Source: a virus
Lineage: Duplodnaviria; Caudoviricetes
IMG/VR virus record: IMGVR_UViG_3300010882_000012
Length of the DNA: 64,000 nt
Reading direction: 5' to 3' (one strand)
The notes beneath the pieces were generated by a model. That model worked only from the letters and a program-made list of their open reading frames with translations. It made no database searches and was not told where the DNA came from. The position numbers and the translations under genes are program-made. Shown piece after piece: positions 19,525 through 55,486 of this stretch (the first letter of the stretch is position 1; each line of letters opens with the position of its first letter).

Positions 19525-19595
19525 ACAAAAATACATCTTTTTTCTTTACCAAAAGCTTTAAAAAGAAAAAAGTTACTAACAATGTTAGTAACCTT
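19525..19595 (-). promoter_or_regulatory. Promoter motif copy 3 fused to terminator hairpin
   Basis: GTTACTAAC-att-GTTAGTAAC hairpin + T-run; -7 box GTATTTTTGT. Confidence 0.8.
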
Positions 19596-19704
19596 CTCTT
19601 GCCAAAGACCATCCAAATTAAACTATGTAAAAAAGGTAATTATACCATAGATTATTGTAACAGTTAAGCTACTATTAAAAGCTAAATTATACAAAATATT
19701 GTAT

Positions 19705-38666: not shown

Positions 38667-39938
38667 TTAACGCTCTATAATTTCAACGATATAACGAATT
38701 GTTGACTGTTCTGTAGAATAAACCATAAACTCATTATTACGAATTGAAGTGCCGGCATGAGCATAAACACTATCAAAACCTTCACGATCAAGTTGTTTTT
38801 TATTTAAATCATAACAAGCCGATGTATGATTATAGATATGTTTTTGATTGCCCACATGAACATCATAGATTGCTAAGAAAGCTTTTTTGCTACAACCCTT
38901 TGCCCAATAAGAACCAGAAAGAGAAGTATATCCAATAGATTTTTGTGCTTTATCTGCAAAATAAACAGAATTTCCATACATTGCACCTGTAATTATTACA
39001 CCCGCCGGACGTATTAAAAGTCCGGTTTGCAAGATGTTCATCCAATTTTCATTTCTGCTACCATGCCAAAACAGTTCGCATTTTTGGTTTTTGGCTTTTG
39101 CAACATAGCTCTTAAAGTTTCCTTCTGTTTTTTTGTTTACCACAGAAAAAGCTCTTTTGTACTGACCGGAATTGTTTCCCATCATTTTCTTAATGAGTTC
39201 TGCTTCTTTAGAAGACACTTCTTTAACTTCTAGTCCAAGTACCTCAAGCATGTCCATAGTGCTCTTAGAATTGCCCGTTTGCGTCCTGGTGGCTTCTTTT
39301 TGTTTCTTTATTGCTTCAACCTGACCCGCCATAACGTCCAAAAGTTTTTGTTCATCATCTAGCATTCGTTGTAATGATGAGGTAGAGTATCCGCTTTCTA
39401 CAAGATGGTTTTTTACGTGAGCCATTTTTCTCGGTACTGTTCGATACAATTTCAACAAACAATCATTAATAGTTGTTGAAGTACTTTGATTTCTTAAATG
39501 ACCAACCAAGTTGTCAAGGATTTTTTGAGCCTCATCAACTTGTGCTTGTGTAACATCTTCTTGAGTTACAGAATAGTTTTCTTTAATGGTTTTGTTTGCA
39601 TATGCTTGGAGTTCGTCAATGAGTTGACGCACCATAGCATTCTGGATGGCGGTTACTTGTGCTCCGGTTGTAGCATCTTTGATATCGGCCTCAATCTTTT
39701 CAGTATAGAGGTGTGTGATATCATTGTAACCTTTTTTGGTTTTTTCACGATACTTTTTATCCCAATCCGACATAGGATAAGAGTGCTCTATGGAGGTAGA
39801 TTCTATCCTGCCATAAACCACTTTAAAATTTCCATCGTTCTGCTCGAACATATGGTAAAACTTGTTGTTATTGTCCCCTGTAACACAAACCAGTTTTTTA
39901 ACTTGTTTGCCTGGTACCGAGTAATCTGATATTTTCAT
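38667..39938 (-). CDS. PARP-family ADP-ribosyltransferase with N-terminal WGR-like domain
   Basis: NNNKFY...VVYGRI...EKTKKGY (WGR-like); FWHGS, GAMYGNSVYFADKAQKSIGY, RNNEFMVY = H-Y-E triad. Confidence 0.92.
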   Translation of the reverse strand: MKISDYSVPGKQVKKLVCVTGDNNNKFYHMFEQNDGNFKVVYGRIESTSIEHSYPMSDWDKKYREKTKKGYNDITHLYTEKIEADIKDATTGAQVTAIQNAMVRQLIDELQAYANKTIKENYSVTQEDVTQAQVDEAQKILDNLVGHLRNQSTSTTINDCLLKLYRTVPRKMAHVKNHLVESGYSTSSLQRMLDDEQKLLDVMAGQVEAIKKQKEATRTQTGNSKSTMDMLEVLGLEVKEVSSKEAELIKKMMGNNSGQYKRAFSVVNKKTEGNFKSYVAKAKNQKCELFWHGSRNENWMNILQTGLLIRPAGVIITGAMYGNSVYFADKAQKSIGYTSLSGSYWAKGCSKKAFLAIYDVHVGNQKHIYNHTSACYDLNKKQLDREGFDSVYAHAGTSIRNNEFMVYSTEQSTIRYIVEIIER

Positions 39939-39959: not shown

Positions 39960-40018
39960 ACAAAAATACCGCTTTTTTCTTTACGATGAGAACCTAGATG
40001 GAAAAAGATACTAACAAT
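39960..40018 (-). promoter_or_regulatory. Promoter motif copy 7 (drives PARP unit)
   Basis: ATTGTTAGTATC...GTATTTTTGT, 59 bp. Confidence 0.85.
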
Positions 40019-40038: not shown

Positions 40039-40127
40039 AAAAAAGTCCTTGATTACTCAAAGACTCTTTTAGACGTTCAAAAATCATTATTCACAAAATC
40101 TTGATAAATGAAAAAATCAAAAATTGT
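40039..40127 (-). ncRNA. Candidate ~85-nt U-rich small RNA with own promoter and terminator
   Basis: Lies between promoter copy 8 and hairpin terminator ~40039-40068; too short for a credible ORF. Confidence 0.55.
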
Positions 40128-40130
40128 ACT

Positions 40131-40189
40131 ACAAAAATATTGTAATTCTAGATATGAAAGTTTAGTTACATGAAAAAGTTACTAACAAT
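40131..40189 (-). promoter_or_regulatory. Promoter motif copy 8 (no downstream gene)
   Basis: 59-bp motif. Confidence 0.8.
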
Positions 40190-40195
40190 CTGTTT

Positions 40196-40575
40196 AAAAA
40201 GAAAAACGCCCATAGATTCTTTCTGGGCGCTTCTCGTCAGATTTTTGGGCGAAGGTTCTGTAACACCTTTTCTGGCAGCCTAATGGACCTAGTTGAAATC
40301 AATTGTTTTCTGTCCCGGCAGCATGCCCCATAAACCAAGATTCATTTCATGTTCAGGTTCTTGGTCGACCTGATTGCCGGCAAGGTGTTTTCGCTTTCGC
40401 TACGGATTACCTTCGGTGCCGGCAGGCATTCTAAAGACCTGACTCGCGATTCCCGAACGGTTCGCATTATAGCGGCGGGCTCGAGGAGGTCTGGTTTTTC
40501 CGAGTTGACGTTAGGATTCCGCGCGGAGATTCCTGGTTTCTGATCAGCCTACCAGGTAGTGTCAATCGGATGAGA
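40196..40575 (-). ncRNA. Candidate ~370-nt structured non-coding RNA (RNA-A)
   Basis: About 50% GC by hand count (187/370 for 40201-40570); multiple nested helices; own promoter (copy 9) and terminator (CGCCCA...TGGGCG + T-run). Confidence 0.75.
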
Positions 40576-40577
40576 TT

Positions 40578-40635
40578 GTAAAAATACTAAAAATATCAAT
40601 GCGAAAATTTAAAAAGAGAAAAAGTTACTAACAAT
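40578..40635 (-). promoter_or_regulatory. Promoter motif copy 9 (drives RNA-A)
   Basis: 58-bp motif followed by structured RNA instead of the usual A-rich leader. Confidence 0.85.
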
Positions 40636-40660
40636 TTAAACAATTTTTGATGAGGTTTAA

Positions 40661-40920
40661 AAAAGAAAAGAGTCCTTAGATTACTCTAGGACTCTCTTCA
40701 CCACCCAAATTGCTATTTGATTCCCCAATAGGTTGCAACCCTCCCAAGATTTCGGCATAGGTTCTTGGTTGACCGTCTTCTAGGTTGCTGGCGGTAATAC
40801 GCTTTAAAAGCTTCCGCATCTTGCATTAACCTAATCGTGATTTTTCACCCCGACCACACTATTTGGTTGTTTTCAGCCCGGTTGTGAACCTCCTCGATTA
40901 CTCGTTCGAGTCGACAATAG
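40661..40920 (-). ncRNA. Candidate ~220-nt structured RNA (RNA-B) plus terminator, in the 3' region of 40924..41751
   Basis: GC-rich hairpins; shares GGTCRACCAAGAACCT...AATCTTGG with RNA-A; terminator ~40661-40698. Confidence 0.65.
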
Positions 40921-40923
40921 ATA

Positions 40924-41751
40924 TTAAAACATGTCTGCTTTTAAAATACGGATACGAACATCCGGATAAGGAACTCCAGTATAACGAGAATAAGCAGCTT
41001 TTGCTTGATTTTTTGTCATTACAGCATCATAATAACGCTCTTCCTCATCCGGGAATTTAACAGGATGTCCAAAACAAACATAATCTCCTTTTTCAGGATA
41101 TGTAATACCTGCATCCTTATCATCAGTATCATCAATATCATCTTCAAGACGATATTGAGAATTTGCAAGCGCGCAAGGTTCATCATCAACTGTTGAAAAA
41201 AGCTCTGGATGGAATTCTTCAAGTTCTTCTAACGTAATTTCACCATAATGGATATTGGCTAAGTACTTTTTCAAATTTTCGCGGGTACCGGTCAAATTTG
41301 CGGAGGTGTTTCCAGTTACTTCAATTTCCAAATTGTAGTTTTGCAACACCTCTAAGGCCTCATCAAGTTCTTCTTCATCACATACCCAATCAACATCAAC
41401 AATGAATTGGTCATTAAGTCCGTAAAGGTCTGTAACCATTGCATTTACGGCTTGGTCATGTGCATGATCTTCATCATTCATTGCATTCAAAATGGTAAGC
41501 GCACGGAGATCATCCATAGCTTGTGCATCACAAAGAGATTTGAAGTAAATCCGGTAGTCTCCATTGTGTCTCCAGTCTATAACACCCTCATTTTTGAGGT
41601 CTTGCATGAAAGTTGAAACAATTTGCTGCGTTGCCCAAAAATCGTTGGCGCGTAATTCGTTTTTAACTTCTAAAGTTGTGGTTTCTCCGTTCAATTCGAT
41701 TAGAGTTTGTGCAACCACTTGCACATCATTTTTTGTAGTTGTCTTTTTCAT
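40924..41751 (-). CDS. Acidic multidomain protein with winged-helix-like N terminus
   Basis: TTTLEVKNELRANDFWATQQIVSTFMQDL...YRIY; D/E-rich middle. Confidence 0.8.
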   Translation of the reverse strand: MKKTTTKNDVQVVAQTLIELNGETTTLEVKNELRANDFWATQQIVSTFMQDLKNEGVIDWRHNGDYRIYFKSLCDAQAMDDLRALTILNAMNDEDHAHDQAVNAMVTDLYGLNDQFIVDVDWVCDEEELDEALEVLQNYNLEIEVTGNTSANLTGTRENLKKYLANIHYGEITLEELEEFHPELFSTVDDEPCALANSQYRLEDDIDDTDDKDAGITYPEKGDYVCFGHPVKFPDEEERYYDAVMTKNQAKAAYSRYTGVPYPDVRIRILKADMF

Positions 41752-47378: not shown

Positions 47379-47456
47379 GTAAAAATACAGCTTTTATCCT
47401 TACGAAAGTGCATGAATCGGAAAAAGTTACTAACAATCATATGCTAGTAACCTTTT
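47379..47456 (-). promoter_or_regulatory. Promoter motif copy 13 fused to terminator hairpin
   Basis: AAAAGGTTACTAGC-atatgatt-GTTAGTAACTTTTT. Confidence 0.85.
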
Positions 47457-47476
47457 CACTATCAAATCAAAATTCT

Positions 47477-48914: not shown

Positions 48915-48993
48915 GTAAAAATACAGCTTTTATCCTTACGATAAGATTTAAAAAGAAAAAAGTTACTAACAATTTGCATGCTAGTAACCTTTT
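48915..48993 (-). promoter_or_regulatory. Promoter motif copy 14 fused to terminator of the NAD operon
   Basis: AAAAGGTTACTAGC-atgcaaatt-GTTAGTAACTTTTTT. Confidence 0.85.
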
Positions 48994-49040
48994 CCACAAT
49001 CAAAAATTCAAAAAAGTTCTCTATTCAAGAGAATTTATTA

Positions 49041-54523: not shown

Positions 54524-55000
54524 ACTCTATTTCCCATTCTCTTTCTTCTGTGGTTGCTTCCGACTGAACTACAAACTCTGGGAGAAGTTTGTTTCTCGTT
54601 TCACAAATTCAAGATACGTCTCACCACCAGATATTACCTGAATCTCCACGAGCTTAAATTCGATATGTTCTATACCTACTCGTTCTCTTAGTACTAATTA
54701 GATTAATTAAAGTTAGCGTTCTCATCAATTTCTCTGCTTAGTTATCATCAATCAAAATTCTATTTTATTATGCGCAAGTTTTAAAAAGTTTTAGAATTGT
54801 TGGAAAAAAATTGAAATTTTATCCGGTCTTTCATGTGCTTTACAAACTAAAGATTGACAACCGATTTCTTTTAGTGCACATTGTTGACAATCATTTAGTT
54901 GATATGATTTTACTACTTTGTATCGATTTCCTTTAAATCGGCATGTAGTTCCTAACTCTATGAAAAACTTTTTCTTCTTTTTCATATACTATCTATTTTA

Positions 55001-55030
55001 TAAAAAGAGCCTCAGATTTCTCTAAGGCTC
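55001..55030 (-). terminator. Intrinsic terminator
   Basis: AGAGCCTTAGA-gaaa-TCTGAGGCTCT + T-run. Confidence 0.8.
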
Positions 55031-55129
55031 TAGATGGTGGACCATCATGATTGCCGGTCTAATTTAATCATCCGGATGATGGTCCTTCCTGCCTGGCGAG
55101 GACTGCATTTCACCAGTCCGGAAAGTGTG

Positions 55130-55486
55130 TTATGATAACGGTTGTGAAGTTGTTGCACACCATGGACCTCTATTAGCTGCCCAGGACGTCTCACAACGGA
55201 GATTGATACTTGGAATAGCATAACAAACTTTGAGGTCACCAAGGTGGTCATTTACGCCCAAAAATTGAGCATCACGATAACCATATGCTTTGGCATATTT
55301 TTCAAAACGACTACGGATTGTTCTAACCGTACTTGCCCATTTTCTACGACCTTCTGAATTGTTGAGGGAGATAATGGTACTTTGAAGTGCACGATAAACA
55401 CCGTCACGACAATTTTCGTAAACTGCATTTGTACTTACAGCTTCTTCACGAGCTGATGTTGCTGGATTTTCTTTTTTTACTGACAT
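55130..55486 (-). CDS. Hypothetical protein (start corrected to MSVKK)
   Basis: ATG follows the promoter leader. Confidence 0.7.
   Translation of the reverse strand: MSVKKENPATSAREEAVSTNAVYENCRDGVYRALQSTIISLNNSEGRRKWASTVRTIRSRFEKYAKAYGYRDAQFLGVNDHLGDLKVCYAIPSINLRCETSWAANRGPWCATTSQPLS

Follow-up and report, generated by a model that had tools for sequence, protein, structure and literature searches.

Here, we describe RNA-A, a real, precisely delimited, non-coding and GC-rich unit that runs from a promoter to a terminator in a phage genome, and which we are inclined, on balance, to regard as a stand-alone, strain-specific accessory non-coding RNA (ncRNA) gene. The unit resides in a stretch of 64,000 nucleotides (nt; hereafter the window) that corresponds to bases 63901-127900 of the 146,406-bp IMG/VR virus record IMGVR_UViG_3300010882_000012. 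The record is 56% complete according to CheckV, its mean guanine plus cytosine (GC) content is 29.9%, and nearly all genes of the window are carried by the minus strand. RNA-A lies on this strand in a 985-bp gap between the stop codon of an open reading frame (ORF) of 275 amino acids (40924) and the start codon of a PARP gene (39938). No credible gene was found inside the gap, which gene callers left empty in three independent assemblies of the same phage. Along the direction of transcription, the gap comprises RNA-B and terminator T1; promoter P1, RNA-A and terminator T2; promoter P2, approximately 85-90 nt of AT-rich sequence and terminator T3; and finally promoter P3, which precedes the PARP gene (Table 1). 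The RNA-A unit was recovered with 100% identity over 3.7 kb from at least four independent samples (ENA ERZ27257295 and ERZ27257297, Logan SRR10512950 and JGI 3300010162) and is therefore real DNA and no assembly artefact, and the copies from the different samples offered no sequence variation to analyse.

The initial annotation had placed a full copy of the phage promoter motif at 40578-40635, directly upstream of RNA-A, and the complete module found there does align with the other modules of the phage, its upstream box TTGTTAGTAACTTTTTC being free of mismatches. With up to three mismatches allowed, this box was found 20 times in the window, including 16 times on the minus strand, against 1.46 matches expected. 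In the complete module, the box makes up the upstream half, and GTATTTTT(A/G) sits approximately 23-30 nt further downstream; the GTATTTTT block is invariant in an alignment of five junctions and fits the Bacteroides -7 consensus, TAnnTTTG (PMC4747536). Transcription of RNA-A would start at approximately 40572-40577. For 23 of the 26 promoter modules of the record, an ATG follows within 15-44 nt and opens an ORF of at least 43 codons, with a leader consisting of 40-55% A. The three modules without a following ORF are promoter P1 of RNA-A, promoter P2 of the neighbouring unit 3 and one doubtful copy on the plus strand. Downstream of promoter P1 the leader contains only 25% A, and the next 300 nt have 50% GC and no ORF, so that the earlier observation that the usual A-rich leader and ATG are missing was borne out. 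At three other sites (47420-47457, 48956-48994 and 19566-19598) an inverted copy (GTTACTAGCAT) is found upstream of the TTGTTAGTAAC box, and the two form a near-perfect palindrome. Such a palindrome resembles the operator of a dimeric regulator and marks a promoter subclass; the inverted half is missing from the RNA-A promoter.

At the opposite end, the GC hairpin and U-tract that had been read as closing RNA-A are strongly supported by folding: terminator T2 (40196-40240) consists of a 12-bp hairpin followed by UUUUUCUUUUU, with a z-score of -5.25 and none of 200 shuffles equally stable. T2 shares its hairpin family with T1 and T3, and the changes in the stems are compensating. A composite cassette consisting of terminator hairpin, U-tract, TTTAAAC, box and -7 element is common to all five aligned junctions, and the T1/P1 and T3/P3 cassettes are near-duplicates of each other. 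RNA-A has, by its sequence signals, both a promoter and an intrinsic terminator of its own, from which we infer that it is transcribed as an independent unit, as had been proposed. The adjacent unit 3 contains only a 16-codon ORF (MIFERLKESLSNQGLF), and its 5' portion reads, as reverse complement, like a typical A-rich leader with an ATG-AAA start; it could be a small RNA, or else a nearly empty cassette that recombination has left behind.

In AT-rich genomes, structured RNA genes lie in long GC-rich intergenic regions (PMC8632094), and the 985-bp gap, with its island of 50% GC, is a region of this kind. The approximately 50% GC counted by hand in the initial annotation agrees with our measurements: the 300-nt bin at 40201-40500 reaches 50%, which is the maximum of the window and compares with the much lower mean of the record, while the 200-nt windows at 40300-40499 and 40400-40599 reach 52% and 49.5%, respectively. 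The peak 150-nt window, at 57%, is the maximum of the entire record, and RNA-A is the top GC island among the ORF-free sequence of the 146 kb. Taken by themselves, the promoter, the GC island, the absence of ORFs and the terminator are clearly beyond chance, the internal helices only modestly so.

RNA-A is non-coding by every test that was run. Each of the six frames across the unit contains 3-8 stop codons. The 41-codon ORF on the minus strand (40342-40467) and the 64-codon ORF on the plus strand (40349-40543) that had been noted earlier are present; Pfam gave no match for the 41-, 47- and 64-codon ORFs of the gap, and no homologue of the 64-codon ORF was found among longer proteins. With a codon model derived from 79 long ORFs of the phage, 40-codon pieces of real genes scored -3.66 ± 0.18 per codon, whereas the small ORFs of RNA-A scored -4.5 to -4.9, i.e., 5-7 standard deviations (SD) below real genes and no better than their own out-of-frame phases, and thus displayed no frame preference. 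Their GC content at third codon positions (GC3) was 52-66%, compared to approximately 29% in genes. The only near-open frame requires TGA to be read as tryptophan and was rejected, as TGA ends 6 of the 72 long ORFs of the genome; this translation also has no start and runs into the U-tract. An exhaustive phmmer search with it against 1.84 billion representatives returned two matches, both of them perfect tandem-repeat pseudo-proteins, and the one with fetchable DNA had zero nucleotide similarity to RNA-A. More generally, the protein library includes 'proteins' translated from perfect tandem DNA repeats, and as the scores of their repeat units add up, Arg/Ser/Cys-rich junk translations obtain misleading E-values (2.6e-6) in a library-wide search.

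Three domains, D1 to D3, and an additional hairpin are predicted within the transcribed strand of RNA-A (Table 1), and all helices listed in the initial annotation were reproduced by local folding. Domain D3 appears in all folds (z = -2.72, with 1 of 200 shuffles equally stable). The helices of D2 are the same in the local folds and in the unconstrained global minimum free energy (MFE) structure, and are rearranged once helix P1, the outer helix of D1, is enforced. Helix P1 itself fared less uniformly: it is seen in the local fold, but it is 3.8 kcal/mol worse than the global MFE structure, which in its place pairs the 5' end of RNA-A with 40260-40340. For the possible pseudoknot UCAGGU/ACCUGA, each of the two helices is seen in alternative folds, loops of 2 nt and 12 nt would allow them to coexist sterically, and an H-type pseudoknot is geometrically possible. 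The whole unit has a z-score of -2.74, with much of the signal coming from the terminator; for the body without the terminator the value is -1.43, with 8 of 100 shuffles equally stable, and a second run gave z-scores of -1.5 (MFE), -1.57 (ensemble diversity) and -1.48 (positional entropy). The opposite strand has a fold z-score of +0.41, and the structural lean is thus confined to the transcribed strand. Within RNA-A, the 5' half is better defined (centroid identical to MFE, z = -1.77). Of the initial description as an undescribed multi-domain structured ncRNA, the words undescribed and non-coding stand, while the multi-domain structure is a prediction, with a fold only approximately 1.5 SD beyond shuffles.

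Perfect palindromes are enriched in 40241-40575, where 1.16 8-mers and 0.28 10-mers would be expected; the observed numbers are five (P = 0.009) and two, respectively. Avoidance of restriction sites was not seen genome-wide and does not explain the enrichment, and part of the palindromes coincide with predicted RNA-A helices. We conjecture that CUGAUCAG, in a predicted 13-nt loop, could mediate dimerisation of RNA-A, and the CCGCGCGG hairpin belongs to the same conjecture.

Table 1. Positions of RNA-A, its predicted structural elements and the surrounding features in the window, together with the tRNA array of the related phage G002.
Feature	Position	Strand	Description
RNA-A body	40241..40575	-	~335 nt, 50% GC, no credible ORF
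Promoter P1, upstream box	40618..40634	-	TTGTTAGTAACTTTTTC; exact match, 0 mismatches; aligns with other modules
Promoter P1, -7 element	40579..40586	-	TATTTTTA; 7/8 match to Bacteroides consensus TAnnTTTG
Terminator T2	40196..40235	-	GC hairpin + U-tract; closes RNA-A
Domain D1	40495..40570	-	predicted three-way junction; local MFE = centroid, z = -1.61
D1, helix P1	40561-40570/40499-40509	-	predicted; UCCGAUUGAC/GUCAACUCGGA, encloses CCUGGU/ACCAGG
D1, hairpin	40551-40556/40532-40537	-	predicted; 13-nt loop containing palindrome CUGAUCAG
D1, small hairpin	within 40495..40570	-	predicted; CCG/CGG
Domain D2	40435..40492	-	predicted; AGACCU/AGGUCU stem around CUCG/CGAG and CCCG/CGGG; z = -1.55
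Domain D3	40375..40424	-	predicted; UGCCGGCA/UGCCGGCA stem, AAGGU/ACCUU, GC-GAAA-GC tetraloop
Hairpin ACCAAGA/UCUUGGU	40334..40373	-	predicted; possible pseudoknot UCAGGU/ACCUGA; contains 16-mer common to RNA-B
Palindromes	40241-40575		CTGATCAG, TCCGCGCGGA, CTCGAG, TCGCGA, TTGCCGGCAA, TGCCGGCA, GGTCGACC, GCATGC
RNA-B	40702..40923	-	3' untranslated region of the 275-aa gene; starts directly after its stop at 40924
Terminator T1	40660..40700	-	closes 275-aa gene + RNA-B; with promoter P1 a composite terminator-promoter cassette
Unit 3	40040..40188	-	complete promoter module P2, ~85-90 nt AT/U-rich, terminator T3
Promoter P3 box (PARP)	40001-40017		
PARP gene	38667..39938	-	PF00644, E = 2.2e-21; own promoter P3, separate transcription unit
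275-aa protein (o275)	40924-41751	-	orphan among 5.8 billion proteins
G002 tRNA array	G002:C1:149729-153520 (L181 9729-13520)	-	promoter module inside array

RNA-A could not be assigned to any known RNA family, in agreement with the initial annotation, which had failed to match it to, among others, tRNA, tmRNA or RNase P RNA. For the 64-kb window, Rfam 15 gave no match at the gathering threshold in a test that covered ROOL, GOLLD, OLE, HEARO, raiA, group I and II introns, riboswitches, SRP, 6S and ribozymes, and relaxing the cut-off to E<=10 for 40100-40700 added nothing beyond look-alikes of terminators and noise, all far below gathering. ARAGORN found no tRNA or tmRNA gene in either the window or the entire 146-kb record. 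RNase P RNA (RF00010) resembles RNA-A in length (367 model positions), and ACAGAAAAC of RNA-A loosely recalls the 3' strand of P4, but RNA-A does not match the type A model at E<=10; nor does the rest of the 146-kb record, while among 14 control genomes the same model gave matches in 11, Bacteroides thetaiotaomicron being one of them. Two motifs picked out in RNA-A were rejected: an 11-nt GAAA tetraloop receptor (CCUAAC/UAUGG) seen by eye, the flanks of which do not pair, and a hammerhead core (CUGACGAG), which has no GAAA after stem II.

The searches for homologues were equally negative. No homologue of RNA-A was found by blastn among INPHARED phages and PLSDB plasmids, or by nhmmer in 1.7 Mb of fetched loci, including the whole of the related phage G002, and in the further genomes G003-G005, and the rest of the 146-kb record contains no further RNA-A-like sequence. 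In addition, pattern scans were made, four of IMG/VR, two of metagenomes and two of 185,579 species genomes. The 15-mer shared by RNA-A and RNA-B gave 43 matches in IMG/VR, at the level of chance only; the full hairpin motif gave none in metagenomes and none in genomes; and the purine/pyrimidine-tolerant patterns gave two chance matches to coding sequence in the JGI metagenomes, none in genomes, and 0 and 0 in IMG/VR.

G002-G005 were found via the promoter box, and only their promoter modules match. When IMG/VR was scanned for the box and then for the full module, only G002 (IMGVR_UViG_3300010167_000012; 217.7 kb) proved to be a true relative, and it carries 22 modules. G002 has four ORF-free GC islands, each of which is part of an array of 11 (ARAGORN) to 13 (Rfam) tRNA genes, and in this clade GC-rich ORF-free islands are therefore RNA genes. 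Moreover, the sole ORF-less module on the gene strand of G002 lies inside the array, approximately 110 nt upstream of tRNA-Glu, and the promoter type therefore drives stable RNA genes in the clade. RNA-A resembles such phage tRNA arrays in being a GC-rich ORF-free island in an AT-rich genome with the same promoter type, but it is matched neither by ARAGORN nor by the tRNA and tmRNA models of Rfam. As side observations, one of the Rfam tRNA matches in G002 spans 133 nt (L181 10655-10787), which suggests an intron or insertion, and no tRNA gene is present in the 146-kb record of the RNA-A phage, in contrast to the array in G002. G002, the sole relative, is almost entirely without the o148-o421 block in which RNA-A is located and has almost no genes in common with the present phage here.

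The arrangement around RNA-A resembles the PeSL cassettes known from T4-type phages, whose composite terminator and early-promoter motifs flank and shuffle variable modules (PMC2839356, PMC4122927). RNA-A is likewise bracketed by terminator-promoter cassettes, copies of which recur at the borders of modules in a variable part of a T4-like genome; the T1/P1 and T3/P3 copies are near-duplicates, and an almost empty cassette adjoins RNA-A. The motifs themselves are unrelated to those of enterobacterial PeSLs, consisting here of a Bacteroides-type -7 element and the TTGTTAGTAAC box, and the cargo is a GC-rich RNA without ORF instead of an ORF; recombination at the cassettes is in the present case putative. 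A second comparison is with ROOL and GOLLD, large ornate RNAs of phages and prophages that self-assemble partly via kissing loops, as seen by cryo-EM (PMC12286853). RNA-A shares with them that it is phage-borne, non-coding, GC-rich relative to its genome, several hundred nt long and without a known protein partner, and where they use kissing loops it has palindromic segments in predicted loops, for which self-assembly is conjectured only. RNA-A differs, however, in matching neither Rfam model even at E<=10, in its size (approximately 375 nt, compared to approximately 580 and >800 nt), in not lying beside a tRNA island, its record being without tRNA genes, and in being a singleton, whereas both ROOL and GOLLD occur widely and have covariation support.

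Within the gap, RNA-A has a possible counterpart in RNA-B, the 3' untranslated region (UTR) of the orphan 275-aa gene, which has a GC content of approximately 44-47% and no promoter of its own. RNA-B and the middle of RNA-A have a hairpin and the sequence GGTCNACCAAGAACCT...AATCTTGG in common, or, written with the variant position, GGTC(G/A)ACCAAGAACCT...AATCTTGG. The local alignment of the two extends over approximately 100 nt and the similarity is weak (P = 0.017), and the fold of RNA-B is equal to shuffles (z approximately 0). RNA-B may at most be a degenerate partial duplicate of RNA-A. It also contains ORFs of 47 and 37 codons with poor codon usage. A further GC-rich 3' UTR element was observed on the minus strand at 55020-55130, following a 118-codon gene, with a 10-bp long-range stem GGACCAUCAU...AUGAUGGUCC and then a terminator of the same family (GAGCCUUAGAGAAAUCUGAGGCUC and U-tract); it is followed by a 64-codon Cys-rich ORF (54791-54985) and approximately 260 nt of ORF-poor sequence.

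The initial annotation had presented RNA-A as an RNA upstream of the phage PARP, but an association between the two was not upheld. The PARP family comprises 2027 proteins at E<=1e-20, many of which are on contigs >100 kb, and in all six relatives with readable upstream sequence (51-58% identity) a protein gene ends 14-35 nt before the PARP; upstream of these six, neither an nhmmer match to RNA-A nor an ORF-free GC island was found. In the present phage, RNA-A is insulated from the PARP gene by a strong terminator, a further promoter-terminator unit and the PARP gene's own promoter. A Pyr_excise (T4 endonuclease V-like) gene is located just downstream of the PARP gene in five relatives (L051, L052 and L190-L192), which points to a conserved neighbourhood of PARP and DNA repair in the relatives; the present phage is without such a neighbourhood. 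The accessory region of RNA-A also contains PARP and NAD-salvage genes. In two of the PARP-relative phages, Por_Secre_tail (T9SS sorting domain) proteins were found (L191 5401-7128; L192 8429-9727), and because of these proteins and the -7 consensus the host of the phage is probably a member of the Bacteroidota. As for the genes flanking the region, o275 and o421 are both orphans, and PHROGs and Pfam recognised nothing among the neighbour proteins. The first approximately 80 residues of o275 are winged-helix-like (weak Atlas leads to PadR, Penicillinase_R and WHD_RNase_R) and share 39% identity with the N-terminal part of a G002 protein of 310 aa; the remainder is acidic.

Since the o148-o421 block is almost entirely absent from G002, RNA-A is best seen as an accessory cassette with an RNA cargo. 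The self-contained cassette, consisting of the promoter module, the approximately 335-nt body and the intrinsic terminator, would belong to the variable, accessory part of the genome of an uncultivated T4-like phage. A host-type RNA polymerase would start at the -7 element and produce a discrete RNA of approximately 375 nt, made together with the other genes under the same promoter type. This RNA would then act in trans as a folded molecule, most plausibly as a protein-binding scaffold or decoy in host take-over or counter-defence via its 5' domains D1-D3, and it may self-associate through its palindromic segments. Transcription, fold and action in trans are all steps that we infer from the sequence, and a number of results weigh against an ncRNA gene of this kind. 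RNA-A has no homologue in any collection searched and is known from one phage strain only, and there is therefore neither covariation nor evidence of purifying selection. Thermodynamic support is weak, with 3-11% of shuffles doing as well as RNA-A; the 3' half folds no better than shuffles (z approximately 0), and two incompatible global architectures lie within 3.8 kcal/mol. Further, the neighbouring genes revealed no protein recognisable as an RNA-handling partner, searches of the 56%-complete record for a reverse transcriptase and for TnpB came back empty, and it is from context that the scaffold or decoy mode is suggested.

Among the alternatives, the one that we take most seriously, although we consider it unlikely, is that RNA-A is a functionless passenger, i.e., a foreign GC-richer fragment or scrambled remnant that was trapped between cassettes by recombination and is perhaps transcribed. 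Its occurrence in a single strain, the orphan neighbours o275 and o421, the absence of the block from the sister phage and the marginal fold statistics would all fit such an origin, and the near-duplicate T1/P1 and T3/P3 cassettes and the almost empty unit 3 could be the footprint of cassette recombination, for which PeSLs are a precedent (PMC4122927). Yet no source was found by protein or DNA search, the sequence does not have the look of a decayed ORF (3-8 stops per frame against approximately 6 expected at random), the GC-rich body extends precisely from the predicted transcription start to a terminator of the family that the phage itself uses, and the strand asymmetry of the fold favours the transcribed strand. 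Somewhat less probable again is the more far-reaching idea that RNA-A is the first of a new class of mid-sized structured phage RNAs that would function either unaided or together with proteins of the host, perhaps forming a self-assembling particle held together through palindromic loops or serving as a decoy that counters a host defence, with RNA-B as a degenerate second copy of its core.

The enrichment of perfect palindromes (P = 0.009) and the winged-helix-like N-terminus of o275, a weak lead, would suit an element working at the DNA level, such as a palindrome-rich platform for dimeric proteins (e.g., o275) or a site of recombination or replication, with the RNA being incidental. We regard this as improbable, given that the palindromes are all different and provide no repeated operator, that several of them are accounted for by predicted RNA helices, that a turning point of GC skew is absent here, and that promoter and terminator bracket RNA-A so precisely. 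Slightly less credence still is due to a cis-regulatory leader or attenuator, in which a long sensor RNA would let T2 be read through conditionally into unit 3 and the PARP gene. RNA-A does lie upstream of the PARP gene, shares its strand and ends in a terminator, and CGCCCA(A/G)AAA occurs in it twice, in copies that could pair alternately with UGGGCG; this alternative pairing would, however, still adjoin the U-tract, two complete promoters (P2 and P3) and another terminator lie between RNA-A and the PARP gene, no riboswitch, T-box or leader family of Rfam matches, and the PARP relatives are without a leader. The least probable of the readings is an mRNA for one or more small basic peptides, encoded by the 41-codon ORF at 40342-40467 and its 37-codon relative in RNA-B. 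In both ORFs, the 16-mer common to RNA-A and RNA-B is read in frame as RSTKNL, and where the six codons differ, at three nucleotides, the changes are synonymous, but the resemblance does not extend beyond 6 codons, and upstream of it the frame is shifted by an indel of 7 nt. The codon usage is approximately 6 SD below that of real genes and equal to that of the out-of-frame phases, GC3 is 66%, the A-rich leader of the other 23 genes is absent, and the ORF has no Pfam or database homologue and was predicted by no gene caller.

Phage-encoded ncRNAs larger than small RNAs are rare. RNA-A is at present a well-delimited single-strain candidate and not an established discovery. Should the interpretation as an accessory ncRNA gene be correct, RNA-A would widen the ROOL/GOLLD-like class, known for its RNA-only cages, with an unrelated example from a Bacteroidota-type T4-like phage, and would provide a compact object of approximately 375 nt for structural work that is expressed from a recognisable phage promoter. 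It would further mean that the terminator-promoter cassettes of T4-like phages move RNA genes as well as ORFs.

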